Source: a bacterium (GTDB lineage: Bacteria; Zhuqueibacterota; Zhuqueibacteria; Oceanimicrobiales; Oceanimicrobiaceae). Taken from it: a stretch of DNA of 64,000 nucleotides. The DNA lies in contig JBHHYI010000001.1 of the NCBI GenBank assembly GCA_046757525.1, positions 31,073 to 95,072 of the forward strand, written 5' to 3'. How positions within the stretch are numbered: the first letter of the stretch is position 1; each line of letters starts with the position of its first letter. Below the pieces are notes generated by a model that searched no databases, had not been told where the DNA came from, and saw only the letters and a list, made by a program, of their open reading frames with translations. The position numbers and the translations under genes were made by a program. Shown here one piece after another: positions 4,219 through 63,868 of the stretch.

Positions 4219-5418
4219 ATGAAAACACGCAGTTTGGTATTTTTTGTTTTGTTGCTTGGCCTGTCAACCAGCTTGAGTGCTCAATCCTTTTATTCCAGAA
4301 AGGGCATTGGTCTGGTACACTATTTTGTAAGCGGACGAAGCGTAGCCATGGGAGGCGTGGGACTGGCCTTCATAGAGCCTCTGACGGTGAACTACCTGAA
4401 TCCTGCAGCCCTGGCCGCCCTACCACTCACAACCGTTTCTGGCAATTTTTTACACCAGGCAGTCGATGTCAATGGTGCTTCACCCGATGCGTTCATATCC
4501 GATACCAACGTGGCCGGGTTGCAATTTGTTATTCCTATCAAGAAAGAGGTCATTTCAATCTCAATAGGGGCTGCCCCGTATAGCCGCATCCAATATGGCT
4601 TCAGCAATTTGGGGTCCGATGGGGAAAACTCGTACCGGGAAACCGTGTCGGGCGATGGTGGCGTCACAAGTGCCTTCTTCAGCTTGGCAGTCCGACCGGT
4701 CAAAAGATTCTATCTCGGAATCACCGGATTGTTTTATTTCGGCAGATTGAGCACTAATTGGCGCCTGGATTTCGTCAACTCGACACTGCAGGACGCGCGA
4801 GACAAAGTTTCACGTACTTTTAATGCTGGAAATTTTAGGGTTGGGGTGCTCTACAAGGTCAATTCAAGCTTGAATGTCGCAGCCGTGTTGTCCCCCTCTG
4901 TCACCCTGGACGCAAACAAAGAAGTTTCCACCCGCTTTTCAGAATTCACAGATTTCCCCAATTCAGACCTCGAACTCCCCCTGGCGTTTGGGCTGGGCAC
5001 CTCCTGGAAGCTTAGCACCAAGATTCTGCTCGGCGCAGATTATTATACGGAGTTGTGGAGCAAAAGCAATTTCCAAGATGAGGGCATTGTAAACGACAGC
5101 CAACGAATTGCCCTGGGTATCGAGTTTTTACCAAATTCATCCGTTGCGGGTTCGTATCTTAGCCGAGTCGCCTACCGGGCAGGCTTTTTTTACCGAGATT
5201 TGGGTATTGAGGATCCAATAGGAGAAAGGGTAACGGAGTTTTTTGGTTCTATCGGACTGGGCTTGCCGGTCCGCTGGCGGGCGGGTAGGATTGACCTGGC
5301 CCTCGAAGGTGGTAGGCGGGGCTCGCTGTCCTCAAATCCCATCCGAGAGACGGTCGTTCGAGTTTCCGCCAGCATCTCTGTTGGACAAAAGTGGTTCTAT
5401 CGCGGGGGACGACGGTAG
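4219..5418 (+). CDS. outer-membrane beta-barrel protein, FadL/PorV (OMPP1)-like
   Basis: Signal peptide plus an N-terminal GRSVAMGGVGLAF...NPAALAAL motif typical of FadL-family barrels. C-terminal residues are aromatic-rich. Confidence 0.5.
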   Translation: MKTRSLVFFVLLLGLSTSLSAQSFYSRKGIGLVHYFVSGRSVAMGGVGLAFIEPLTVNYLNPAALAALPLTTVSGNFLHQAVDVNGASPDAFISDTNVAGLQFVIPIKKEVISISIGAAPYSRIQYGFSNLGSDGENSYRETVSGDGGVTSAFFSLAVRPVKRFYLGITGLFYFGRLSTNWRLDFVNSTLQDARDKVSRTFNAGNFRVGVLYKVNSSLNVAAVLSPSVTLDANKEVSTRFSEFTDFPNSDLELPLAFGLGTSWKLSTKILLGADYYTELWSKSNFQDEGIVNDSQRIALGIEFLPNSSVAGSYLSRVAYRAGFFYRDLGIEDPIGERVTEFFGSIGLGLPVRWRAGRIDLALEGGRRGSLSSNPIRETVVRVSASISVGQKWFYRGGRR

Positions 5419-6865: not shown

Positions 6866-8158
6866 TTGGAGCTGATAAAAAAGACAGATCCCCAATTATA
6901 CCGGGCTATCGTAGATGAAATCCACAGACAGAATGAAAAGCTTGAATTAATAGCGTCCGAGAATTTCGTCAGTCCTGCCGTGTTGCAGGCCATGGGGCAG
7001 GTCATGACCAACAAATATGCCGAGGGTTACCCGGCTAAGCGATATTACGGCGGTTGCGAATTTGTAGATGTTGCAGAAGAATTAGCCCGAGACAGAGCCA
7101 AGAAACTTTTCCAAGCGGAACACGCCAACGTACAACCCCACTCAGGTTCCCAGGCCAACATAGCGGCCTATTTTTCTTTCATAAAGCCTGGGGACACGAT
7201 TTTAGGCATGAATTTGTCCCATGGGGGGCATCTGACCCACGGCAGTCCGGTGAATTTTTCCGGGCGAATTTTCCGGGTAGTCTTTTATGGCGTCAATCGA
7301 GAGACTGGGCGCATCGACCTGGACGAAGTGGCGGCTGTGGCCGAAAAAGAAAAGCCGCGGCTCATCATCGTCGGTGCCAGCGCCTACGCCAGAGCTATCG
7401 ATTATGAATCCTTCAGATGGATTGCTGACAAAGTGGGGGCATATCTTGTTGCCGACATTGCTCATCCCGCGGGCTTGATCGCCTGTGAATTGTTGCCAAG
7501 TCCAATGCCCCATTGTCATGCCGTGACCACGACAACACACAAGACTCTGCGCGGGCCCCGCGGCGGCATGATTCTGATCGGAAAGGATCAAGAAAATGAT
7601 TTGGGGATAAAGACGCCCAAGGGGCGGACCAAACTCTGGTCTGAAATCATCGATTCTAACGTCTTTCCCGGCTTTCAGGGCGGCCCTCTCATGCACATCA
7701 TCGCAGCCAAAGCGCTGGCCTTCAAAGAAGCGCTGCAGCCAGACTTCAGAGAGTATTCTAAACAGGTTATCCGGAATGCACAAACTCTGGCCAATGAACT
7801 GATGGAGATGGGATATCATGTCGTCTCAGGCGGCACCGACACGCATCTGATGCTGGTCGACTTGCGCAACAAGGGCTTGACCGGCAAGCAGGCCGAACAG
7901 GCTTTGGAACAAGCGGGCATCACGGTCAACAAGAACATGGTTCCTTTCGATGACCAGAGTCCCTTTGTGACCAGTGGCATTCGTTTAGGGACGCCGGCTT
8001 TGACAACCCGCGGCATGAAAGAAAAGGAGATGGCGGAAATCGCAAAGTTCATCGATTCCGTTTTGTCGCAGATTGACGATAAGACTGTGATCAAAGAGGT
8101 CGCCCATGAGACTTTTGAGCTGTGCGAGCGATTTCCGTTGTACCAGGTGCCGGACTGA
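6866..8158 (+). CDS. glyA: serine hydroxymethyltransferase
   Basis: Full-length SHMT similarity ([13 protein letters not shown], the PLP-lysine region [13 protein letters not shown]). Confidence 0.95.
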
Positions 8159-8164
8159 ACGATC

Positions 8165-8623
8165 ATGCGCTGCCCTTACTGTAAATATGAAGATAGCCGC
8201 GTCATCGACTCTCGTGCCAGCAACGAGGGGCGGGCCATAAGAAGGCGAAGGGAGTGCTTGTCATGCAAACGGAGATTCACCACCAAGGAGCATGTGGAAG
8301 AGTCTCCGCTTATGGTGGTCAAAACGGATGGACGGCGTGAAATCTATGATCAGAGTAAGCTGAGGCGAAGCCTGCAAATCGCCTGCATCAAAAGGCCCAT
8401 TTCTGTGAACACCATCGATGATATCGTGACGAAGATCGAAGGTCGATTGCGCGACAAATCCCAGGATGAAATCAATTCTCGTGAAATCGGGGAGTTGGTC
8501 ATCAATTACCTTCGAGAACTGGATGAGGTCGCCTACGTAAGATTTGCTTCCGTTTATCGCAATTTTCAGGATAAGGAAGAATTCTTGAGCGAGCTGGAGG
8601 GCCTAAAGGAACTCGGCAAATAG
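8165..8623 (+). CDS. nrdR: transcriptional repressor NrdR
   Basis: MRCPYCK...CLSCKRRFTT zinc ribbon followed by an ATP-cone. 152 aa. Confidence 0.9.
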   Translation: MRCPYCKYEDSRVIDSRASNEGRAIRRRRECLSCKRRFTTKEHVEESPLMVVKTDGRREIYDQSKLRRSLQIACIKRPISVNTIDDIVTKIEGRLRDKSQDEINSREIGELVINYLRELDEVAYVRFASVYRNFQDKEEFLSELEGLKELGK

Positions 8624-17979: not shown

Positions 17980-18567
17980 TTGATTACCCGATTTTCATAT
18001 TGCCTCACTTTGGTGCTGTTTATTTTTTCTTGTCATTCTCAAGAAGATGTGTCTTCTAATGCACCGGAGTTGACCGAACTGCCGGCTCAGGAAGGGTGGA
18101 ACTCCACGTTGACAACCACCAGTCAAGGAAAATTTCAAGCGGTCATAAAGTTCGAACATATGGAAAAATTTACGAAGAAAAAAGTTACCCAATTTGATCA
18201 AGGCGTTGAGATCGATTTTTACGATGACAGCGGAGCACATTCGTCAAAGGTCTACGCTGAGAATGCTACCCTGAACGACAGGAGCAAAAACGTGGAATTG
18301 GGTGGGCGTGTGGAGGTGCATGGCGACAACGGCATCATCCTGAGAACGGAAAAACTGCTTTGGAACGAAGCCAAGGGTTCCATGTCTTCAGACGAATATG
18401 TTACCATCATCACGGCGGAGAACGATTCGATGTATGGCTATGGTTTCGAATCCGGGCAGTCTTTGGAAAATTGGACCATTAGCAAGCCGTGGGGCGCCAG
18501 CCCGAAAAAGTTGAACACTGAGGCGTTGGACAAAACCACAGAATCCAACCATGGTAGCCAGAATTAG
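17980..18567 (+). CDS. LptC-like lipopolysaccharide export protein
   Basis: Signal/lipobox N-terminus, about 190 aa. Sits in the conserved position upstream of the lptA-like, lptB and rpoN genes. Confidence 0.5.
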   Translation: MITRFSYCLTLVLFIFSCHSQEDVSSNAPELTELPAQEGWNSTLTTTSQGKFQAVIKFEHMEKFTKKKVTQFDQGVEIDFYDDSGAHSSKVYAENATLNDRSKNVELGGRVEVHGDNGIILRTEKLLWNEAKGSMSSDEYVTIITAENDSMYGYGFESGQSLENWTISKPWGASPKKLNTEALDKTTESNHGSQN

Positions 18568-19633
18568 TTTGCCATTGTTGATGCTGCTCTTGCTCGACAT
18601 TCCGTTGGGACACACCCAGGAAGGTCGATTGCGCTATCGGGCTGATGTGTTCAAACGGGAGCGCGTGGGTCGACAGGTACTGCAGATTTTTGAAGGGCAC
18701 GTGAGATTTGAGCAGAATCAAACGAAAATAAGCTGTGACAAAGCCGTTCAGTATGTGGGTCTGGGCAAGACCATTCTGAGCGGTACGGTCGAGATCAATG
18801 ACAAGAACCGCACCTTGTTTGCCGATACCGTTTACTTTTATGATCGGGTGAAAATGGAGGTTGCAGTCGGCAAGGTGCGTGTGGTGGCTGATGCGGACAC
18901 GACCACGGGGAACCGCATGACATACTACGAGGCCCAGGACAGTCTGGTGTCCGAGGGTGACGTCGAAGTGATCAGCCCCAAAGAACAGACGCGGCTAACG
19001 GGTGGCTATCTCAGTTACAATAGAGCCAGCGGGGCTGGCATGGTGTTAAAAAATCCGGTTTTGATTCAATACGACAGTCTGAACACTGAGATGATGCGCA
19101 TTGTCAGTGACACCTTGGAGACTTTTGAGGGAGGCAGCCATGTTCGAGCAATTCACAACGTCGACATAAAGCAGGCAGGCATTGAAGCGACCTGCGGAAA
19201 GGCGGATTACTTCAAACCGCACGGTCTGGTAGTATTGCGGGACCATCCCAGGGCCTGGCAACGGAATCAACAAATCTCAGGCGACACGTTGGAAATCTAT
19301 TTGAAAGAGTCAAAACTGCAGCGTGCAAGGGCGTTAGGCCACGCGATCACCACCTCTGATGCCGACACTTTGAACAAGGGGCGTTGGGTCAACAAGTTGA
19401 CGGGTCAGCGCATCGATTTGTACTTTGTTGACGAAAAGCTCGAGAAAGTCATTGTAGCGGACCAGGCTACCAGCGTTTATCATATCATAGAAGACGATCA
19501 GTACAAAGGTGCTAACGAGGTTTCCGGGGACCAGATCACGCTGTTTTTGTCCGCAAAAGGCGCGGTGAGCCGGATTCATGTTGAAAGCAGTCCTGGAAGT
19601 TCTAATGGAAAATACAAACCGCCGAGCATTTGA
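18551..19633 (+). CDS. OstA/LptA-family periplasmic protein
   Basis: Signal peptide and beta-jellyroll-like repeats. Synteny with lptB-rpoN. Overlaps the previous gene by 17 nt. Confidence 0.5.
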
Positions 19634-21042
19634 AAATAAATTCAATGGTTCGAGAACACGATGGGCACAAATACTCATTCTTAAACCAGAATAAAGAGCA
19701 AGGTGATTCCCAGGAATATCGATTGGCTCCAGATTATTTGACGGCGACTTATGACAAATTGCTCAAGACTACGGAAGAAGAAGTCGGCCGATTGGTCGTA
19801 ATCAGTGATGACGATGAGTGCCGGAAATCTTTCATCTCGCTGTTGACCGGCGGATATTATGCCTCGAAGAAGATCGAGCTCATACAGTCGAAATACATTG
19901 AATTAGGGAAGGTCATAACGCACAACAAGAACAAGCTGGAGATATTCGGGATTTCTGTTGAACGGAGGTTCTTGCAAAAGTTAGAACGGATGGCAGAGAG
20001 CCTGGTTGGGTACATTCTCTTGATTGGTACCAAGAAAGCTTACGACAAAATGAGCTACTTGGGATATTTAATGAATACTCTCAGAAAGAACATCGAGGTG
20101 CCTTATGTGGTGGCGTTTGACCGTTCCCGGGACCCGCGCGGCAAGCACGTGCCGTTCATTCAACACGCTTTGCGATTAGATGAGCAGGAGCCATTTGTGG
20201 AATTCGACATACACAAAATTGCCAGTGTGAATCGTTTGTTACATGAGCTTATACCAGCTACTACCACGATGAAGATGCCAAAGACTCAAGATAGAACCCG
20301 AGAAGAAGCCCCTCCGGCCAGGTTAAGGTCGGAAAACCTGGTTAAAATTTACAAGAAGCGCAAGGTTGTAACCGGGGTCAGCGTCGAATTGAAGCAGGGG
20401 GAAATCGTTGGTTTGCTGGGACCGAACGGTGCAGGCAAAACCACAACCTTTTACATGATCACTGGCATGGTCCGGGCCAATGCGGGCAGAATATTCATCG
20501 ATGATCGGGACATTACGACCTTGCCCATGTACAAACGCGCCCGCCTGGGGATCGGTTATCTCTCGCAGGAACCTTCCATTTTCAGGAGGCTCACAGTTGA
20601 GCAGAATATCATGGCTATCCTTGAGACCATGCACCTTTCCAAAAAGGAACGCAGGAATCGCCTGGCAGAGCTGTTGGAAGAGTTGAACATTGCCCCCTTA
20701 GCCAAAAACAAGGCCTACACGCTTTCCGGCGGAGAACGTCGACGCGTGGAAATAACCCGGGCGCTGGTGACTAAGCCCAAATTCATGTTGCTCGACGAGC
20801 CCTTTGCTGGTGTGGATCCAATCGCTGTGGAAGAAATCCAAGAGATTATTCAGAAGTTGAAGCTCAGGGGCATCGGGGTGCTCGTTACAGATCACAACGT
20901 CTATGAGACGCTTTCCATTACCGATCGCGCCTATCTGATGTACGAGGGGGTTGTGCTAAAGTCTGGCACCGCGCAGTTCTTAGCCAGCGATCCCGAAGCC
21001 ATTAAACTGTACTTAGGAGAAAAGTTTCGATTGGATCGTTAG
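19630..21042 (+). CDS. lptB: LPS export ABC ATPase LptB with an about 230-aa N-terminal Ras-like pseudo-GTPase extension
   Basis: The C-terminal about 240 aa is canonical LptB (GPNGAGKTT Walker [12 protein letters not shown] signature, [10 protein letters not shown] Walker B). The frame stays open for about 700 nt upstream. Confidence 0.85.
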
Positions 21043-21092
21043 GCAGATGCCATTGAATGGTGTTTGATTGAATATCAGGAGAACCCGATAGC

Positions 21093-22538
21093 ATGGTAAA
21101 TTTAGTTCAAAGACTTAGCATGCAGCTAAAACAGTCGCCTCAACAGGTGCTGTTATCTTCTCTACTCCAACTTCCACTATTGAGCCTGGAGCAAAAACTA
21201 AAATATGAGCTGGAGATGAACCCGTTGCTTGAAATCGATGAAGAGATAGAAGTAGCAGAGGAAATGCAAGAAGAACCTGAACTGAATGCTGAGCTGGACG
21301 ACAAGGATCAAAGCACAGATGGGGAATTGGAGCCAAGCGAAGATGCCACCGATGATTTCGACAAAAATGAAGTTGACTGGGATGCCATATTGAATGATGA
21401 AGACAATTATGAGTTTCGCATGCCGAGAGACCATAGCGCCGAGATATTTGAACGGCCAGAAGTGGCGCAAACCACCCTGCCGGAGCACCTTTTAAGTCAG
21501 CTTCATCTGATAGATTTATCTGAGGAGGAAACGGCGATTGGGGAATATATTATCTGGAACATCAACGAAGACGGCTACCTGTCTGTTTCGCTGGAACTCA
21601 TAGCCGAAAACCTGGACCAGCCTATTGATAAGATCGAAAAGGTTTTAAGTGTAGTTCAACAACTTGATCCCGTAGGCATTGGAGCCAGGAACCTGCAAGA
21701 GTGTCTGCTCATTCAAATGCTCGACAGGAATCCGGAAGATCACATCGCCATCACCATTTTGCGCGAGCACTTCGAAGATTTTACCAACAAACGCTTTGAA
21801 AAGATCACCAAGAAAATGAATATCACGCTGGATGACATCCGTAGAGCCATGGATGAGATCACCAAACTAAACCCGAAACCCGGTGAAGGCTATGTCACCT
21901 ACCACCAGAATGTCATCATCCCCGATTTGGTCGTAGAGAGGGAGGACGGTGAGTTCAAAATCGTCATGAACGACTGGAACGTTCCCCACCTGAGGATCAA
22001 TAATTCTTACAAGCGGCTGTTGTTAGATAAGAAGCATACTTCCAAGGACACCAAGGACTACATTCGGCAAAGCCTGGAGTCTGCTCGCTGGTTGATCAAT
22101 TCAATCCATCAAAGGCGGGCGACGATCTTGCGCGTCATGGAAGCCATCATCGACAAACAAAGGCCATTCTTCGAAAGGGGCAAGGATTATCTTAAGCCGA
22201 TGATTTTGAAGGATATCGCAGATGAGATTGGCATGGATATCTCTACCATCAGCCGGGTCACCAACGGCAAGTATGTTCAGACCGAACATGGTGTGTTCGA
22301 GCTAAAATACTTCTTTAGCGAAAGAATCAAAAGCGGTACCGGCGAGGATGTCTCCAACAAGAAAATAAAAGGCTTGATTAAGGAAATGATTGCCCAAGAG
22401 GATCCGCACAAGCCATTAAACGATCAAAAGATTGCGGAGATGTTGAAGACCGAGGGCTTCAGTGTGGCGCGCAGAACTGTTGCAAAGTACCGTGAGCAAA
22501 TGATGATCCCGGTATCCCGTCTGAGGAGGAAGATTTAA
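21093..22538 (+). CDS. rpoN: RNA polymerase sigma-54 factor
   Basis: N-terminal Q/L-rich activator-interacting region and an RpoN box (ARRTVAKYRE) at the C-terminus. Confidence 0.9.
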   Translation: MVNLVQRLSMQLKQSPQQVLLSSLLQLPLLSLEQKLKYELEMNPLLEIDEEIEVAEEMQEEPELNAELDDKDQSTDGELEPSEDATDDFDKNEVDWDAILNDEDNYEFRMPRDHSAEIFERPEVAQTTLPEHLLSQLHLIDLSEEETAIGEYIIWNINEDGYLSVSLELIAENLDQPIDKIEKVLSVVQQLDPVGIGARNLQECLLIQMLDRNPEDHIAITILREHFEDFTNKRFEKITKKMNITLDDIRRAMDEITKLNPKPGEGYVTYHQNVIIPDLVVEREDGEFKIVMNDWNVPHLRINNSYKRLLLDKKHTSKDTKDYIRQSLESARWLINSIHQRRATILRVMEAIIDKQRPFFERGKDYLKPMILKDIADEIGMDISTISRVTNGKYVQTEHGVFELKYFFSERIKSGTGEDVSNKKIKGLIKEMIAQEDPHKPLNDQKIAEMLKTEGFSVARRTVAKYREQMMIPVSRLRRKI

Positions 22539-22701
22539 CCTGAATAATCCACTTCAAAAACTGAGTTTTTAAGTGAAAATTGCACGGTATTTAAGTTGTT
22601 TGACATGGGGATGTCATTATTACCAAAAAAATAATAAATTACCAGAAAAACTCAGTTTTTTGGGTTAGGTTAAATAAGACTTCTATAAATTATTCAGGTT
22701 A
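22537..22701. promoter_or_regulatory. nested inverted repeats in the rpoN-hslV intergenic region
   Basis: Outer inverted repeat aacctgaataat (22537-22548) / attattcaggtt (22689-22700). Two copies of AAAAAC-TGA/TCA-GTTTTT (22556-22570 and 22646-22660). Central tgacat-gggg-atgtca palindrome (22601-22616). Confidence 0.4.
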
Positions 22702-22709
22702 AGTCAAAA

Positions 22710-23249
22710 ATGGATCGCAATAGGATTAGAAGCACAACCATCTTGGCCGTGCAGCACAAAGACAAAGCGGCTATCGGAGGCGATGGGCAGGTGACCTTTG
22801 GCGAGTCTGTCTTAAAAATGCACGCAAAGAAGGTGCGGAGAATGTACAAGGATGCGGTTGTGGCTGGCTTTGCCGGCGCCTCTGCCGATGCCATCACGCT
22901 GTTTGAAAAGTTTGAAAACCGTCTTGAAATGTACGGCGGCAACCTGAGCCGCGCCGCGGTAGAACTGGCGAAAGAATGGCGTACCGATCGGTATCTCAGG
23001 AGGCTGGAAGCGCAGCTCATCGTGATGAACCGAGATGGGTTGTTTCTCATCTCCGGGACCGGGGACGTGGTGGAACCCGACGACAACGTGATTGCCATCG
23101 GTACAGGGGCAGGCTACGCCATGGCTGCCGCTCGCGCTTTGATTCGGCATTCTGAGCTGGACGCAAAAAACATCGTGCAAGAATCGTTGCAAATTGCTTC
23201 AGACATTTGTATTTATACGAACTCGAACTTGATCGTCGAAGAACTCTGA
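22710..23249 (+). CDS. hslV: ATP-dependent protease subunit HslV
   Basis: TTILAV...GDGQVTFG N-terminal threonine protease motif. Confidence 0.9.
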
Positions 23250-23264
23250 TTAAGGAATTGCTCA

Positions 23265-24632
23265 ATGCGTGATATCAAGGAATTCACCCCAAGGCAAATT
23301 GTTGAACAATTAGATAAGTACATCATTGGTCAGGACAAGGCCAAGAAGTCGGTTGCGATTGCCTTGAGAAATCGCTGGCGCAGGTTGCAGGTGCCTGAAA
23401 AGCTGCAAGAAGAAATCATGCCCAACAACATCATCTTGATCGGGCCGACCGGGGTTGGGAAAACGGAAATAGCGCGCCGACTGGCCCGTCTGGCAAATGC
23501 TCCTTTCGTTAAAGTAGAAGCTTCAAAGTTTACCGAAGTGGGCTACGTGGGGCGGGATGTGGAATCCATGATCCGCGAACTCACCGATTTAGCCGTCTCC
23601 ATGGTCAAATCTGAAAAGACCGAACAGGTGCAGGCATTAGCTCGAAAACATGCCAATGAACGTCTGTTGGACATCCTATTGCCCGTCCGTAAAAGCAAAG
23701 CCCGTGTGGGTTATGAAAACAACGATGAAGAAAGCCCCGAAGAAAGGTACCAGCGTTCGCGTGAGAAATTCAAGAAACAATTGGAAGACGGCGATCTGGA
23801 AGACCGCATGGTCGAACTGGACGTAAGTAGTGAACAATTCCCTTTGATGCAAATCATCTCCCCTATGGGCGTTGAAGAAATGGGGGTCAATCTGCAAGAA
23901 ATCTTTGGGGGCATGATGCCCAAAAAGTCGAAGCGACGGAAAATGAAGATTACGGATGCCCGAAACCACTTGATTCAGGAGGAAGCGCAAAAACTCATCG
24001 ACATGGATCAGGTGGTTCAGGAGGCCATAAATAGAGTACAAAATGCGGGGATTGTGTTCCTGGATGAAATAGACAAGATTGCCGGCAGCGATTCCGGCAA
24101 AAGCGGTCCCGATGTCTCCCGGGAAGGGGTTCAGCGGGATTTGTTGCCCGTGGTGGAAGGCACCAGCGTTTTTACAAAGTATGGCATGGTGAAAACGGAT
24201 CATATTCTTTTCATTGCTTCCGGGGCTTTTCATCTTTCCAAGCCTTCAGATCTGATTCCGGAACTCCAGGGCCGATTTCCCATTCGGGTCGAGCTTGCAA
24301 GCCTGACGGCCGATGATTTTGTGCGCATTCTTACCGAGCCGGAAAACGCGTTGGTCGAGCAATACAAGGCCTTGTTGAAATCAGAGAATGTGGACCTGGT
24401 CTTTACCAATGGTGCTGTTCGTGAAATCGCGAACATTGCCAGCCAGGTCAACGAGAGGACGGAAAACATCGGGGCGCGCAGACTTCATACCGTGTTGACC
24501 GCTTTGTTAGAAGAGGTGCTTTTTGAGTTGCCCGATGCAAAAATCAAAAAGGTAGAAATCAACAAAGAAAAAGTACGGGAGACGTTGAGCGAGATCGTAG
24601 AGGACGAAGATTTAAGTCGCTATATTTTGTAG
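23265..24632 (+). CDS. hslU: ATP-dependent protease ATPase subunit HslU
   Basis: [21 protein letters not shown] and a [15 protein letters not shown] Walker A. Confidence 0.95.
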
Positions 24633-41731: not shown

Positions 41732-41738
41732 AGGGTAA

Positions 41739-41796
41739 GGGACTGGCTCTCAAAGGAGCAGTGCAGAGAAGCAGGAGCCAGTCCCCCTTGTTTTTG
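41739..41796 (+). terminator. terminator-like long hairpin after hisS
   Basis: gggactggctc ... gagccagtccc 11-bp stem followed by CCTTGTTTTTG. Confidence 0.55.
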
Positions 41797-42219
41797 ACCT
41801 CCGCAGTGATGCTATGCCATAGGGTTGGAATGGAGATCAAAACCTTTTAACAAAATTCAGGAATTCCTTTTCCCGTCCGAGAATGAATGTGACGAGGAAT
41901 TTCTTGCAACTCGTCATATTTTCTACAGTCAGGCATCCGTGCCTATTTTGTCAAATCCAGTTGCCTGTGTCCCTGCAAACGCAATGCCAGTGTAATCGGC
42001 AAGAGAGTAATTGGCATTAAGATATTGTTTTTATTCAGGAAGATTTTTTAGAAGGACAGGGATTCTCGGTCATTGCCTGGTAGTAGCTGAAACACTGTCT
42101 TGCCATGAAACATGGGGTTGTATTTGCACGGCTGTCTGATGCTAAACCTATTACCACTTTCGAGGCGCCTATCACAGCCATGGTTTTAGCACTTCAATTC
42201 TTACTTCGAGTCCGGACGT

Positions 42220-42540
42220 TCAGGGCTTGGAATCAGTTAGCTCGGGCTTCTTTTCCAACTGCTCGAATTCATCGCTTGCTTTTTGAAAAACCTGCAACCA
42301 GAGCTCCGGGTTCGCGTCAAGATATTGAATGGTATTTTCCAACTCTTCGGGGGTAACGTTGAACTGCTTCAGAATTCTCTTTTGGGCTTCCAGAGAATCC
42401 GCAGCGGAGTGATATTGGCTTTGTAGAACCAATTGGATATAAAGGTCGGTAAATTGATCGAGGTCCAGGATGTCTTCCGGCTTCTGCCTGGAACAGGAAA
42501 GCAGAAGCATTATGGCAATAAGTGCTATTTGGAGTCTCAT
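42220..42540 (-). CDS. small lipoprotein (hypothetical)
   Basis: MRLQIALIAIMLLLSCS lipobox signal. 106 aa. Confidence 0.4.
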   Translation of the reverse strand: MRLQIALIAIMLLLSCSRQKPEDILDLDQFTDLYIQLVLQSQYHSAADSLEAQKRILKQFNVTPEELENTIQYLDANPELWLQVFQKASDEFEQLEKKPELTDSKP

Positions 42541-42676
42541 TTTTTCAACCAAAGCGCTCGTTAGTCAACTACCTAAAGGTATGAAAACATTGAAAGAGTG
42601 TCAATAGCTCAGCCAAAATGCTCTTGACTTTTTACATAAATTTTGATAATTTGAATTGAAATAAGAAGAATTCCAA

Positions 42677-59611: not shown

Positions 59612-60001
59612 TCGACAGGCAAAGCACGCCGGGAGCCGCAAAACAAGTCCGGGCTTTCGGGCCCGGCGCTGGACTTCATGAATCGAGCATCGGTCTCTTA
59701 GGTCCTAAAAATACCCGTTTCCTACCTTCCACGCTCAGAGGATTCTGGTCGTTTTCCGGCCATTCGCCTCAAATCTGTTCAAACTTGCGCGTCAGTCTTT
59801 CCTAACAAGCTTCGACCTAAGTGCTTAGTAACTCGAGGCTTGTACAACCACTTTTTCCTTTCGGCACAACCATTGCACGTGCGTTCAGGATTTATGGCTC
59901 AAATCATTTTGACACCATCACTTTGCTTCAATTCATTTAATAACCAAGGCTGAGTCATGGCCCTTCGTAAGTCAAAATCTGTTTTACAAAGAGGACGTAT
60001 T

Positions 60002-61399
60002 ATGCCGTTAAAATCGCCGAGGATTTTGATTGTCGACGACGAACCGCTCATGAGCAACATGCTCAATGAAGCCTTGAAGAAGAAAAACTATGACGTCTCG
60101 ATTGCGGACAACGGACGGGCCGCCATCGAGCTGTTAAAGAAAGTCAAGTTTGACCTGGTGATCACGGACATTTTTCTTCCCGACATCAACGGCATGGATA
60201 TACTCAAAAAGGTCAAACAACTGGACGCCAACATTGGGGTCATCATGATCACGGGGCACGGCTCTATTGAGAAAGCCGTGGAGGCTATGAAAGTTGGAGC
60301 CTATGATTTCTTGAGCAAGGGGTTTTCCATCGGCGAAATCGAAGTTACAGTTGAAAAATTTTTCAAATACCAACGGCTTTTGCAGGAGAATGAATTGCTG
60401 CGTTCCGAGTTGGGCTGCCGTTACGGGTTAGAGCGCATCATTGGCAAGAGCGACTCAATCAGAAAGGTGTTCGAGACCATTGAAATGGTGGCACCTACCA
60501 AGGCCACGGTTTTGATTCAAGGCGCCAGCGGCACTGGCAAAGAGCTCTTTGCGCGCGCGATTCACGACTGTAGCCCCCGGCGGGAGCAGGCCTTTGTAAA
60601 AACAAATTGCGCTGCGATTCCCGAAGGGTTGATTGAAAGCGAGCTTTTTGGACACGAAAAAGGGGCCTTCACCGGGGCTATACGCCGCACCAAGGGCAAG
60701 TTCGAATTGGCGGATGGCGGCAGTTTGTTGTTGGACGAGATTAGCGAGATCAGGCCCAATTTGCAGGCCAAATTGCTGCGCGTGCTGCAGGAAAGGGAAT
60801 TCGAAAAAATCGGAAATCCTGAATCGATCCAGGTCGATGTGCGCATCATTGCTACGACCAATCGCGATTTAAGAGAAGAGGTCAAGCGGGGAAATTTTCG
60901 CGAGGATCTGTTCTACCGCTTGAATGTCGTACCGATCTTTGTTCCGCCTCTGCGGGATCGCAAGGAAGACATTCCTTTGTTGGTGGATCACTTCATCGCC
61001 AAATACTCAAAAGAAAATGACCGGCGCATCGCTTGCATCGATGAGCAGGCGTTGCACGCTTTGCTGCAACATGATTGGCCAGGGAATGTTCGTGAACTCG
61101 AGAATGCCATTGAACGCGCTATCGTCATCTGTAAGAACGACACCATTTTGCCGCAACACCTTGCGGTTGGCGAGTTTTGTCGACAGGAAAGCGGCTCTAA
61201 CTCGACCTATTCTCTACCCTCTGGCAAAACATTGAAGGAAGTGGAAAGGGAACTCATCTTGAAGATCCTGGACGAACAGGGAAAAAATAGAACGCATGCA
61301 GCGCGCAAATTAGGCATCAGCGTTAGGACTCTACGAAACAAACTGCGCGAGTACAAAGGTGACGACTCCGCAAGTCGAGAGGAGCTGGTAGGAAATTAG
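60002..61399 (+). CDS. sigma-54-dependent response regulator (NtrC family: REC-AAA+-HTH)
   Basis: Receiver domain (ILIVDDEP...ITDIFLPD), GASGTGKE Walker A, GAFTGA sigma-54 contact motif and a C-terminal Fis-type HTH. Confidence 0.9.
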   Translation: MPLKSPRILIVDDEPLMSNMLNEALKKKNYDVSIADNGRAAIELLKKVKFDLVITDIFLPDINGMDILKKVKQLDANIGVIMITGHGSIEKAVEAMKVGAYDFLSKGFSIGEIEVTVEKFFKYQRLLQENELLRSELGCRYGLERIIGKSDSIRKVFETIEMVAPTKATVLIQGASGTGKELFARAIHDCSPRREQAFVKTNCAAIPEGLIESELFGHEKGAFTGAIRRTKGKFELADGGSLLLDEISEIRPNLQAKLLRVLQEREFEKIGNPESIQVDVRIIATTNRDLREEVKRGNFREDLFYRLNVVPIFVPPLRDRKEDIPLLVDHFIAKYSKENDRRIACIDEQALHALLQHDWPGNVRELENAIERAIVICKNDTILPQHLAVGEFCRQESGSNSTYSLPSGKTLKEVERELILKILDEQGKNRTHAARKLGISVRTLRNKLREYKGDDSASREELVGN

Positions 61400-61634
61400 T
61401 TTCACCCCTTAGGCAAATTCTTCCGCCAAAAACCATCCTCAGCAATAGCCAGGGCCTTCATAGCCTCTTGAGAAGCGAGTGCCGCTTCAGATCGCTTGCA
61501 ACAAGACCCGTTTCCGATCCCCAGGAATAAGTCTCATATTATTAGTCTCCTAAGCGATTAACACAGCATAACAAAAGTTGAGATTCATTACATCTGGGCT
61601 CGTTGATCTCGATACGACTTCTCCACTCAGCCTG

Positions 61635-61650
61635 TGGCATGGAAGTTGCC
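61635..61650 (+). promoter_or_regulatory. sigma-54 (-24/-12) promoter upstream of the sigma-factor gene
   Basis: TGGCATG-GAAG-TTGCC against the consensus TGGCACG-N4-TTGCW. Lies about 225 nt upstream of the ATG at 61876. Confidence 0.6.
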
Positions 61651-61875
61651 AAATCAATTCCCCAGCTAACAGCTTGGTAATCTTGAGCTGTACAACTCCT
61701 AACAAGAATGCTTAACATTTGCTATCCCATTTGAAACTAAGAGACCCTTAAACTATTGCAACCAGACTGTTCTTAGACTCAAACTGCTTACAATTTATTG
61801 CGGGGCATATTGCGTGTCTTCAACCGACTTAGACGATTCTTGGTGGTAACAAGAACTATTTAAGGAGAGATTCTT

Positions 61876-62640
61876 ATGCATGCAGCGGTACAGATGAAGC
61901 TATGGCAGGAATACCGAGCTACTCAAAAGCCGGAAACTCGAGAGGCGCTTTTAGTCCAATATTTGCCCCTGGTAAAATATGTGGCGGGCAAGATGATGTT
62001 TTCACTGCCCGCTTCCGTTGATTACAATGACTTGATCAGCGCAGGTATTATGGGGCTAATCGGTGCCCTGGAAAGATTCAATCCGGACCAGGGGGTTAAG
62101 TTTGAAACATTTGTGTTGCCTCGAATCCGGGGTGCTATTTTGGATGAATTACGTACCTTAGACTGGGCACCCAGATCCCTTCGATCAAAGGCACGCATGG
62201 TTGAACGCGCTGGTTCCCAGTTAGAAAAGGAATTGGGGCGCGCCGCCTCAGACATCGAGATCGCCGACAAACTTGACATGGACATTGGTGAATACGACTG
62301 TGTTATGCGGGACTTGAGCATGGCTTCGTTGTTATCTCTGGACGGGGGTCTGGGGGAAGAGGCCGAGAATCTTACCTCCATGTACGACCTGCTGGAAAAC
62401 ACACAGTCCGACAATCCTTACCGAGTCTTAGAGACCGATGAAATAAGAAAACTCCTAATAGCAGCCATAGAAAGCCTGAATGAGCAGGAAAAAATAGTCA
62501 TGGCTTTATATTACTATGAAGAATTGACCCTGCGCGAGATCGGCCAGGTGCTAAACATTACCGAGTCCAGAGTCTCACAAATCCACAGCAAGGCTATTGA
62601 CGGCTTGAGAAGTCTGTTAGAAAATGAAATCTTATCCTGA
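61876..62640 (+). CDS. alternative sigma factor, FliA/SigB/SigF (group 3) family
   Basis: Region 2 (ISAGIMGLIGALERF, FETFVLPRIRGAILDELR), region 3 and a region 4 HTH (LTLREIGQVLNITESRVSQIH). Confidence 0.85.
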   Translation: MHAAVQMKLWQEYRATQKPETREALLVQYLPLVKYVAGKMMFSLPASVDYNDLISAGIMGLIGALERFNPDQGVKFETFVLPRIRGAILDELRTLDWAPRSLRSKARMVERAGSQLEKELGRAASDIEIADKLDMDIGEYDCVMRDLSMASLLSLDGGLGEEAENLTSMYDLLENTQSDNPYRVLETDEIRKLLIAAIESLNEQEKIVMALYYYEELTLREIGQVLNITESRVSQIHSKAIDGLRSLLENEILS

Positions 62641-62730
62641 CCACGGAAAATGCAACGAGCAAACGGGAAAAGCAAGAAACCGAGAAGCTACCAATTTTGT
62701 TGTTCTTTGACAATTGCCAGCAAGACGGAG

Positions 62731-63150
62731 ATGATAGGCATCGGCAGGGCATGTCTCACTGAAATTGCGTCCAGCCTGGGTTTCGACAGCAGACGCATCT
62801 ATGAACTCAAATTAGCCCTGAACGAGGTCTGTGTCAACATCATAGAATATTGCTACCATTGGAACATGAATTACAAGATTCTAATCGAATTCTTTCAACA
62901 CGACGATAAGTTAGAAATAAAGGTGAAGGAATTTAGCAAGTTGATCGACTCCAACATTCACCGTGACTTGGCAAAACCAGACGAAGCTAAGCTGAATTCC
63001 AACAACCATTTCTTGGTGAATCATCTCATGGACGAGGTTTCATTTGACTATGAGGCGCCTGAAGGGGTAGAGATCAGTCTAATTAAACTGCTTGGACGCG
63101 AGAAAGAAGGAGTCATCGACAATCGGCAAACCATAGTAAATCAGAGCTGA
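62731..63150 (+). CDS. RsbW/SpoIIAB-like anti-sigma factor serine kinase (HATPase)
   Basis: ELKLALNEVCVNIIEY N-box-like motif and NHFLVNHLMDEVSF G-box-like region. Start placed at the ATG at 62731. Confidence 0.6.
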   Translation: MIGIGRACLTEIASSLGFDSRRIYELKLALNEVCVNIIEYCYHWNMNYKILIEFFQHDDKLEIKVKEFSKLIDSNIHRDLAKPDEAKLNSNNHFLVNHLMDEVSFDYEAPEGVEISLIKLLGREKEGVIDNRQTIVNQS

Positions 63151-63206
63151 TTCAGACGCTTGCAAAACAACACGGAGCTTTAGGAAACATCAAACGGAAG
63201 CGATGG

Positions 63207-63683
63207 ATGAAACTGAAGTCAAGAACAATGGCCGACGAAGATGAAAAGCTCGTGGAGAACGACGATGTTCATTTCCATGATTTCTTGAACAACTTGAGCC
63301 GCATCATCGAATTCGATGCCGGCAGTTTGTTTCTGTATGATACGGAGTCAGAAGCCCTAAAGGAAGTTGCCAACAAGGGAGAAGGCATTGATTTCATCAG
63401 TTCCGTGCACTTTCCGCTGGGCAATGGCCTGTCAGCCTGGGTGGCCCAAAAAGGCAAACTCATCTATCTCCCTGATATTCATCGGGGGAGCAGGCATGGT
63501 GAGAATCCGGTGCGGTCGTATGTGTCCATTCCTCTGGAAGTCAACAGCAAGGTGCTGGGGGTATTGAATCTGGGACATGGAATTCCACACGCCTTCAGCG
63601 ATGAAGATATTAAGAGAATAGAATGCGTCGGCAAAGAGGCCATTCGTAGGATAGTCAACCGGAAATATTTAAAATTGAATTGA
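63207..63683 (+). CDS. GAF-domain protein
   Basis: Single GAF fold of 158 aa (DAGSLFLYD...VLGVLNLGH). Confidence 0.7.
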   Translation: MKLKSRTMADEDEKLVENDDVHFHDFLNNLSRIIEFDAGSLFLYDTESEALKEVANKGEGIDFISSVHFPLGNGLSAWVAQKGKLIYLPDIHRGSRHGENPVRSYVSIPLEVNSKVLGVLNLGHGIPHAFSDEDIKRIECVGKEAIRRIVNRKYLKLN

Positions 63684-63868
63684 CTGTTATGGTTTATGAG
63701 TTACCTGGCATGGAAATTGCAAAAACTTGGAAAAATGAAAATGGTCAAAACGTGAAAATCATTTCATTCCTCAATAAAATAACAAGTTAATTTGCTTTGC
63801 TTGCATTGCGTCATGGTTCGCACGTGTCTCAATGTGAAATATAAGCCAAATAAAATGGGTGTTGGCAC

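Follow-up and report, generated by a model that had tools for sequence, protein, structure and literature searches.

A predicted sigma-54 to sigma-28 regulatory cassette with RsbW-like and GAF proteins in a KSB1/Calditrichota-like bacterium

Regulatory cascades in which sigma-54 controls the flagellar sigma factor sigma-28 (FliA) are understood mainly from work on Proteobacteria and Campylobacterota, and the flagellar genes of Vibrio and Pseudomonas are ordered in multi-tier hierarchies. Both such cascades and partner-switching input to FliA are already known. In Vibrio cholerae an RpoN-dependent fliA operon is documented, and FlrA acts one tier above flrBC, which has a sigma-54 promoter ahead of it (PMC3439928). 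In Geobacter an RpoN-dependent fliA operon has been predicted (PMC2725144). Here we analyze a 64,000-nucleotide stretch of DNA (contig JBHHYI010000001.1 of assembly GCA_046757525.1, positions 31,073 to 95,072; the window), in which the gene for a sigma-54-dependent activator is followed by fliA, a gene for an RsbW-like protein and a gene for a GAF-domain protein (Table 1). The four genes were found at the positions that an initial annotation had given them, all on the plus strand, and Pfam assigns their domains. We consider it likely that these genes make up the regulatory core of a sigma-54 to sigma-28 cascade of the flagellar type, with possible control by the RsbW-like and GAF proteins, in an uncultured KSB1/Calditrichota-like bacterium.

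The predicted circuit resembles Vibrio FlrA/FlrBC/FliA, Geobacter sulfurreducens and Pseudomonas FleQ/FleSR in that an activator of the NtrC family and RpoN would drive fliA. As with flrBC in Vibrio, the regulator gene is preceded by its own sigma-54 promoter element. The FliA of Vibrio and Geobacter reads promoters of the TAAA-N15-GCCGATAA type (PMC3439928, PMC2725144), as FliA is predicted to do here. Unlike in those hierarchies, fliA lies outside an flhF-flhG-fliA operon and forms a separate unit directly downstream of the activator gene. The candidate upstream activator site (UAS) overlaps the activator stop codon, no cognate kinase gene is adjacent, fliA is predicted to be co-transcribed with genes for an RsbW-fold pseudokinase and a GAF protein, and the phylum is KSB1/Calditrichota of the FCB group.

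The sigma factor was first described as belonging to the FliA/SigB family, and only the former name stands. The protein passes the cut-offs of the FliA/WhiG model TIGR02479 (270.9 bits against 189.6) and of NF005413 (253.7 against 201), and stays below those of the SigB/F/G model TIGR02980 (111.8 against 234.35) and the RpoS model (90 against 379). All three Pfam regions, Sigma70 r2, r3 and r4, are present. Homologs of the sigma factor are named FliA/WhiG in metagenome-assembled genomes (MAGs) of KSB1, Calditrichaeota and Zhuqueibacterota, and homologs of the sigma factor and the GAF protein occur in MAGs labeled candidate division KSB1, Calditrichaeota, Caldithrix or Zhuqueibacterota. On these model scores the protein is unambiguously classed as FliA/WhiG (sigma-28) and not as a SigB-type stress sigma factor. 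A FliA-profile scan of a genome collection returned mostly distant FliA proteins of Zixibacteria, Ignavibacteria and Actinobacteria; these loci were not used because their GAF matches are parts of longer unrelated proteins. The identity of the sigma factor also bears on the parallel that had been drawn to Rrp2-RpoN-RpoS of Borrelia burgdorferi. The circuit logic is shared, with a response-regulator activator and sigma-54 acting on the gene of a second alternative sigma factor. The target here is FliA/WhiG instead of RpoS, and the context looks flagellar, with a FlgA relic, csrA, a sigma-28-type promoter and the flagellar clusters of relatives. Because the sigma factor is FliA/WhiG, the closest known architecture is the flagellar sigma-54 to sigma-28 cascade and not Rrp2-RpoN-RpoS.

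The 476-bp gap between the activator gene and fliA (61400-61875) contains the element TGGCATGGAAGTTGCC, which matches TGGCAC-N5-TTGCW with GG and GC 12 bp apart and one mismatch at the last position. Gap and element lie where they had been placed before, and the distance to the sigma gene, originally given as about 225 nt, is 226 nt to the ATG at 61876. With up to one mismatch allowed, TGGCAYN5TTGCW matches the window 13 times, compared to 5.6 ± 2.5 times in shuffled sequences, and none of 100 shuffles reached 13. Three of the 13 (59862, 61635 and 63706) are non-coding, in sense orientation and inside this 4-kb cassette. Alignment of 12 fliA leaders leaves TGGCA and TTG as the sole invariant columns, with the C of the -12 element kept in 11 and flanks that cannot be aligned. 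A TGGCAY-N5-TTGCN element stands 73-163 nt ahead of fliA in all relatives that have FliA at least 72% identical and the activator gene upstream, and the calculated chance expectation for a permissive version of the pattern is ~0.006 per 400-nt leader. The -24/-12 element at 61635-61650 (P_fliA) is very probably a real sigma-54 promoter, and the conservation across the 12 leaders bears out the earlier claim of a sigma-54 element ahead of an alternative sigma gene.

Two imperfect palindromes, TAGGAAATTAGTTTCAC and TAGGCAAATTCTTCCGC, stand in tandem at a spacing of 21 bp. Both lie 210-245 bp ahead of the -24 element of fliA, and the first overlaps the stop codon of the activator gene. They came from an inverted-repeat scan upstream of the promoter, as the initial annotation had advised, which located them at 61389-61426 and found them conserved in 10 loci. 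The loci compared here carry L numbers and are orthologous loci from exact-protein look-ups, a genome scan and a metagenome scan. In the 10 loci the tandem site, of the type TAGGMAAW..TnTTnCC, is found at the same place, 180-250 bp upstream with a spacing of 20-22 bp, and the invariant blocks of their alignment are TAGG.AA and GGCAA..T.T.CC. In L165 the second site forms a perfect palindrome, GTAGGCAAACTTTGCCTAC. Judged by the ends of the open reading frames (ORFs), several loci have both sites wholly outside the coding region, and therefore the conservation acts on DNA. From their position we infer that the adjacent activator binds these sites. A loose pattern of the upstream site scanned over the window gave background matches only, and no more regulon members can be called from it.

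A natural deletion variant is found in L090 and L091, whose FliA is 72% identical and in which the activator gene is missing. These loci retain the sigma-54-type element that stands upstream of the activator gene (P_ebp), as GGGCATACCCCTTGCA, and a palindrome farther upstream, TGGTTGTTTTTCAACCA, which is perfect in L090. The TAGGMAAW sites are missing and the fliA-proximal element, TGGCATGGATATTGAA, has decayed at -12 (TTGAA). The region of interest in L090 covers 4514-4646 and 4908-4923. A functional unit made up of activator, upstream site and P_fliA would be expected to leave this pattern, which is seen in a single lineage.

Transcription of fliA could be arranged otherwise, with the gene mainly read through from P_ebp or served by an unrecognized housekeeping promoter in the 226-nt leader. 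TGGCA-N7-TTGC would then contribute little and could be a sigma-54 roadblock or a silent site. No terminator is predicted in 61400-61875, and the activator gene does not separate P_ebp from the downstream fliA in L090. The housekeeping sigma factors of KSB1 may follow promoter rules other than those scanned for. In V. cholerae, fliA is considerably expressed in an rpoN mutant (PMC3439928). The pattern of conservation speaks against this arrangement: in 12 loci it falls at the level of single bases exactly on -24 and -12 with the correct spacing, a conserved tandem site lies at activator distance, and decay of the -12 element is seen only where the activator gene is missing. Nor does 61400-61875 contain a convincing sigma-70-type promoter, a Bacteroidota-type -7 motif or a sigma-28 autoregulation site; a constitutive sigma-70 promoter directly ahead of 61876 is what the initial annotation had named as contrary to its reading. 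We judge it improbable that read-through or a housekeeping promoter is the main source of fliA transcription, and take P_fliA as its predicted promoter.

Two other features of the fliA leader were considered. A riboswitch or structured leader was rejected: Rfam has no RNA family in the 226-nt leader or the window at gathering thresholds, nor in the cassette at E ≤ 1, and the leader folds no better than shuffled sequences (z = +0.79). A 58-aa minus-strand ORF at 61542-61718, from a public Logan gene call, spans the sigma-54 element. It has no Pfam match and no counterpart in the relatives with shorter leaders, and is probably spurious.

The activator had been described as a complete REC-AAA+(GAFTGA)-HTH protein, and Pfam agrees, with Response_reg (1e-30), Sigma54_activat over its full length (1.3e-71), AAA_lid_14 and HTH_8 (1.4e-12, residues 425-466). 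The GAFTGA loop reads ELFGHEKGAFTGA, and the receiver residues D27/D28, D71 and the K of LSKGF are seen in the translation (480-aa numbering). With receiver, AAA+ and Fis-type HTH parts all in place, its sequence assigns it to the response-regulator (NtrC) class of enhancer-binding proteins. The start needs to be shifted. The true start is most likely ATG 60002, giving 465 aa, instead of 59957, because an AGAGGA ribosome-binding site, the gene call in L001 and the N-termini of homologs agree on it. L001 is the window sequence extended by 3.8 kb on a Logan contig, and is the basis for all readings past the window end. The best NCBIfam match of the activator is AtoC-like (497 bits against a cut-off of 714). 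In contrast to the activators of the known flagellar hierarchies, it stays below every NCBIfam equivalog cut-off, including FlbD (383 against 750) and FlgR (332 against 750) and likewise FlrC and FleR. Therefore no named orthology to FlgR, FlbD or FleR/FlrC can be assigned. No gene for a cognate histidine kinase was found among the ~45 ORFs of the window searched with Pfam.

Two further sigma-54 elements, at 59862-59877 and 63706-63721, had been overlooked before. The first, P_ebp, retains GGCA and TTGCA in 10 of 11 orthologous upstream regions. In the alignment of these 11 regions a conserved block of the TGGTTG-N5-CAACCA type stands ~100 nt farther upstream. In the window this block is the imperfect palindrome TGGTCGTTTTCCGGCCA, a candidate site of a separate higher-tier activator. 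Autoregulation of the activator through the same site was rejected, since the block at P_ebp is unlike the upstream site of fliA. The second element, TGGCATGGAAATTGCA, lies just past the GAF gene and precedes a small membrane ORF, a gene for the N-terminal domain of FlgA, and csrA; it has counterparts in L163 (8405) and L165 (7799).

The protein encoded next to FliA was initially called an RsbW/SpoIIAB-type serine kinase. As to the fold this holds. HATPase_c_2 scores 48.2 bits against 27.4 in Pfam, and the AlphaFold model (predicted local distance difference test, pLDDT, 79), in which the predicted ATP lid (residues 100-114) is disordered, finds RsbW (6m36/6m37, target TM 0.86-0.91), SpoIIAB and UsfX (8jzt, 8ih8) as the top Foldseek matches. 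As to the kinase it does not. Three RsbW/SpoIIAB models stay below their cut-offs (62.4 against 145, 60.9 against 155 and 29.7 against 135), and the motifs are lost. In an alignment with B. subtilis RsbW, SpoIIAB and ten environmental homologs, the N box keeps E and N and has H replaced by E, the G1 box RDFG has become KEFS and the G2 box GGLG has become NSNN. The ten other homologs retain all ATP-binding boxes, the losses being confined to the window and L165. An exhaustive HMMER search of 1.84 billion representatives found one orthologue, that of L165 (42% identity), followed by generic RsbW-like proteins at ~30-35%, and a word-indexed search returned the protein itself only. The L165 protein has equivalent losses and has also lost the Asn of the N box. 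The RsbW-like protein is very probably not a kinase, and would be a pseudokinase.

If it acts at all, the RsbW-like protein would most likely do so as a stoichiometric, binding-only anti-sigma-28 factor, by analogy to UsfX and RsbW1. These mycobacterial proteins are kinase-negative anti-sigma factors of the RsbW type that still bind sigma, and rsbW and usfX are co-transcribed with sigF (PMC7693655). In both cases a small GHKL-fold protein of the RsbW/SpoIIAB family, without kinase activity or motifs, shares an operon (here a predicted one) with a group-3 sigma factor. The differences are that the sigma factor here is FliA, that the gene order is reversed with the sigma gene first, that the interaction is a predicted one, and that no STAS antagonist such as RsfA or RsfB is encoded nearby, its position being taken by the GAF protein. 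The earlier term partner-switching module is overstated. The ATP boxes are lost, the gene is missing in most close relatives, and no STAS or PP2C gene belongs to the locus: tblastn with the STAS proteins of three relatives found none in the window or L001, and no PP2C/SpoIIE domain occurs in the annotated ORFs of the window or in the related modules.

Pfam also confirms the GAF-domain protein noted earlier downstream of the sigma gene (GAF_2, 1.5e-13). Its model (pLDDT 85) has a generic fold with 322 GAF matches in the PDB at E ≤ 1e-3, and the alignment lacks the Cys residues that are typical of the free methionine-R-sulfoxide reductases. Its 71 homologs are all stand-alone proteins of 134-203 aa from MAGs of the KSB1/Caldithrix type, and the loop DIHRGSRHG-NP-RS is invariant in the family. 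All 27 loci whose FliA is at least 63% identical have the GAF gene downstream of fliA. This strict linkage, with companions (RsbW, STAS, REC/PAS/HisKA) that vary, points to an uncharacterized post-translational input into sigma-28 or flagellar control. The GAF protein may be a ligand-sensing modulator of that control, possibly an antagonist.

The companions can be traced in relatives. Where FliA is 63-68% identical, fliA is inside flagellar clusters in the order flhA-flhF-flhG-x-fliA, followed 2.5-4 kb on by genes for RsbW (with intact boxes), STAS, GAF and REC/PAS/HisKA proteins and then by flgF-flgG-flgA-flgH-flgI-flgJ-flgN-flgK. STAS genes are found in L004, L005, L097 and L166-L169. In L004, from a hydrothermal-vent MAG, RsbW and STAS are fused in one 268-aa protein (7488-8294) encoded directly upstream of the GAF gene, and in L097 the STAS gene begins 7 nt past fliA and is followed by the GAF gene. 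The REC-PAS-HisKA protein has ~351-357 aa and no HATPase domain (L083 6288-7343, L163 7309-8364, L166 8506-9573). Its gene shares ~26 nt with the end of the GAF gene and is not found at the locus of the window. The NCBIfam model closest to the protein is AtoS, as AtoC is for the activator, and the protein may take part in phosphotransfer with the activator. In the clade with FliA at least 72% identical, fliA and the GAF gene have been relocated beside the activator gene. There the companions are RsbW-like and GAF genes in the window and L165, GAF and REC/PAS/HisKA genes in L083, L163 and others, and GAF alone in L086, L087 and L090. On this comparison the RsbW-like/GAF pair of the window is a reduced derivative of a four-gene RsbW-STAS-GAF-REC/PAS/HisKA module. 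The disappearance of the STAS substrate from locus and window fits the decay of the kinase motifs. The lineage-wise reductions form a natural series that could reveal which parts are essential.

The module recalls the P. aeruginosa HptB-HsbR-HsbA/FlgM-FliA system, in which STAS-FlgM-FliA partner switching wires components of the RsbW/STAS type to sigma-28 and motility (PMC6482189), and the distant relatives of the window likewise hold RsbW, STAS and a REC protein in a flagellar cluster. The Pseudomonas kinase forms one domain of HsbR, a REC-PP2C-kinase protein, and FlgM is the target of the STAS protein. The module described here has no PP2C; it includes a GAF protein and a REC/PAS/HisKA protein that has no catalytic domain, and the window has lost STAS. 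Full-text literature searches found no description of an RsbW-STAS-GAF-REC/PAS/HisKA module in flagellar clusters. A bolder reading, which we put forward tentatively and think unlikely, is that the GAF protein, with its invariant loop, is a new ligand-sensing sigma-28 regulator at the core of the four-gene module. In the lineage of the window it would then work with a kinase-dead RsbW-like anti-sigma factor and replace the STAS protein as antagonist. If true, this would be a partner switch driven by binding of a small molecule and not by phosphorylation.

The series of reductions also lends itself to a reading in which the promoter and activator part is right and the RsbW-like and GAF proteins do not control FliA, being leftovers of a module with another output. 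In flagellated relatives this output might be, for example, motor or assembly control or a second-messenger pathway, and the module would have been lost piecemeal, with the RsbW-like protein decaying or repurposed. The loss of different parts in different lineages fits such a history (RsbW is kept only in the window and L165, STAS alone in L097, REC/PAS/HisKA alone in L083 and L163, and none of them in L086, L087 and L090), and so do the missing kinase motifs and the position of the ancestral module, which adjoins flgF, flgG and flgA and not fliA. The RsbW-like protein also evolves much faster than its neighbors, with 42% identity between the window and L165 compared to 75% for FliA and 67% for GAF. 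However, in these two lineages, whose FliA proteins are 25% diverged, the RsbW-like ORF is intact and its fold is confident outside the ATP lid. The RsbW-like gene begins 9 nt past the fliA stop codon, and the STAS gene of L097 7 nt past fliA. The GAF gene has stayed behind fliA in 27 of 27 loci, including those in which fliA left the flagellar cluster, which argues for a functional tie to FliA. Uncoupled leftovers of this kind are, in our view, rather unlikely, and we retain the RsbW-like and GAF proteins as candidate modulators of FliA.

Further flagellar context lies past the window end, beyond the view of the initial annotation. The predicted membrane ORF of 49 aa shares 42% identity over 36 aa with a 58-aa ORF found at the matching place in L165. 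It is followed by a gene for a 147-aa signal-peptide protein (L001 10158-10601, window-equivalent 64095-64538) that is homologous to the N-terminal 100 residues of FlgA only (38% identity to L166 FlgA, E 4e-15) and has no ChapFlgA/SAF domain. Such FlgA-N proteins of 147-165 aa are encoded next to csrA across the clade (L083 7368-7829, L163 8494-8991, L165 8184-8675), and the csrA past the window end is supported by Pfam (6e-25). A sigma-28-type promoter, TAAAGCTTCAAAAAAGTTTTGCCGATA (TAAAG-N16-GCCGATA), lies 1.4 kb past the window end in L001 and is also found in L165. Its region (L001 11136-11796, window-equivalent ~65073-65733; L165 9150-9750) includes two small genes downstream of the promoter, p133 and p64, which encode 133/119 aa and 64/59 aa in L001/L165. 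The C-terminus of p64, RLRNGFYTTSEVTERIAKKIL, looks by eye like the sigma-28-binding C-terminal region of FlgM. Searches with Pfam, NCBIfam and the PDB sequences returned nothing in favor of this, and an FlgM identity of p64 is a lead at most.

Sigma-28 is also present in non-motile Chlamydia, and a comparable case can be made here. The lineage may have lost its flagella, and FliA, GAF, the truncated FlgA and CsrA would then be a repurposed sigma-54/sigma-28 circuit with a non-flagellar regulon. In the clade with FliA at least 72% identical, fliA is outside the flagellar cluster, and the sole flagellar relic nearby is the FlgA protein without its ChapFlgA/SAF domain. The window has no flagellar structural genes, and two of four KSB1 clades are reported to be without flagellar genes (PMC9012183). 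Against this, flagellar genes are commonly dispersed over a genome, of which the window covers 64 kb, csrA and a promoter of the canonical sigma-28 type are still present, and the length of the truncated FlgA is conserved across the clade, suggesting function over decay. We consider a non-flagellar circuit unlikely and favor a flagellar-type cascade.

In the mechanism that we propose for this cascade, a histidine kinase encoded outside the window would phosphorylate the receiver domain of the activator at D71. The phosphorylated activator would bind the tandem sites, into which the 3′ end of its own gene extends, and, through DNA looping, remodel sigma-54 RNA polymerase at TGGCAT-N5-TTGCC (61635-61650). 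Transcription would run from ~61660 through the fliA, RsbW-like and GAF genes as one operon, and FliA would direct sigma-28 promoters such as TAAAG-N16-GCCGATA past the window end. P_ebp would probably be switched on by a higher-tier activator, resulting in a multi-tier hierarchy, and the third sigma-54 promoter would drive the small membrane ORF, the FlgA N-domain gene and probably csrA. The RsbW-like protein would serve as a binding-only anti-sigma-28 factor and the GAF protein as a ligand-sensing modulator; these two role assignments are the weakest steps. The analysis establishes the gene identities, the conserved promoters and upstream site, the synteny and the lost kinase motifs. That the activator binds its site, that the genes form an operon, what the RsbW-like and GAF proteins act on, and that there is a higher-tier activator are the parts that we infer.

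Several observations weigh against this scheme. The distance from promoter to ATG is 226 nt in the window compared to 73-163 nt in the relatives. A scan for the IHF consensus found none in the stretch from the upstream site to P_fliA. Read-through from P_ebp into fliA could contribute, as no terminator was found between the activator gene and fliA. RsbW is encoded 2.5-4 kb from fliA in the ancestral clusters and does not adjoin it. The RsbW-like gene is missing from most close relatives, where the GAF gene directly follows fliA; the RsbW-like protein is therefore dispensable for FliA control. The generic fold of the GAF protein means that no ligand class can be derived from it. No flagellar structural genes are found in the window or in the flanks of the close relatives, truncated FlgA excepted. 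The relatives with FliA 63-68% identical have fliA inside flagellar clusters, compared to truncated FlgA and csrA alone in the clade of the window.

Several aspects appear to be new: the phylum, the compact unit of activator, site, promoter and fliA, and the RsbW-fold pseudokinase encoded with fliA. The strict linkage of fliA and GAF and the ancestral RsbW-STAS-GAF-REC/PAS/HisKA module in flagellar clusters also appear so. As an FCB-group KSB1 example, the cassette carries the logic of the cascade across phyla. To our knowledge the phylum has no cultured, genetically tractable member, and the cassette offers a concrete wiring diagram for motility-type control: an activator, its likely site, three sigma-54 promoters, FliA and a sigma-28 promoter. 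The compact pair of promoter and upstream site could be rebuilt in E. coli.

Table 1 Features of the cassette and rpoN, in window coordinates
Feature	Position	Strand	Remarks
Conserved imperfect palindrome TGGTCGTTTTCCGGCCA	59746-59762	+	~100 nt upstream of P_ebp -24/-12; from 11-region alignment
P_ebp, sigma-54-type -24/-12 CGGCACAACCATTGCA	59862-59877	+	upstream of activator gene
Activator ORF	59957-61399	+	open from 59957; Pfam
Activator gene, likely extent	60002-61399	+	465 aa; REC, AAA+ with GAFTGA, HTH_8
Candidate UAS, two sites TAGGAAATTAGTTTCAC / TAGGCAAATTCTTCCGC	61389-61405 / 61410-61426	+	
P_fliA, sigma-54 element TGGCATGGAAGTTGCC	61635-61650	+	predicted start ~61660
fliA	61876-62640	+	254 aa; Sigma70_r2/r3/r4; TIGR02479
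RsbW-like gene	62650-63150	+	166 aa; HATPase_c_2; 9 nt after fliA
GAF gene	63207-63683	+	158 aa; GAF_2, GAF, GAF_3; 56 nt after RsbW-like gene
Third sigma-54 -24/-12 element TGGCATGGAAATTGCA	63706-63721	+	perfect consensus match
Predicted membrane ORF, 49 aa	63869-64000, ending at window-equivalent 64018	+	L001 translation
rpoN	21093-22538	+	481 aa; Sigma54_AID, Sigma54_CBD 1.3e-62, Sigma54_DBD 9.8e-62

The window also encodes sigma-54 itself, as noted initially, and the rpoN gene carries the three Sigma54 domains of Pfam (AID, CBD and DBD). In its neighborhood (18551-24632), rpoN is preceded by lptC, an LptA/OstA-like gene and an lptB-like ABC ATPase gene, and genes of the lptC/lptA/lptB type ahead of rpoN are usual in many Gram-negative bacteria. 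Downstream of rpoN come hslV/hslU-like genes (a proteasome-type subunit and an AAA_2 ATPase) and not hpf/ptsN. By Pfam on the ~45 ORFs, the rest of the window has housekeeping functions only. A gene-poor gap of 946 bp (41732-42676) between a histidyl-tRNA-synthetase-like gene and radA has no ORF of at least 120 aa and no Rfam match, and its largest ORF (110 aa, minus strand, 42220-42552) is without a Pfam match. Within this gap lies a perfect sigma-54 consensus, TGGCATTGCGTTTGCA, at 41974-41989 on the minus strand.

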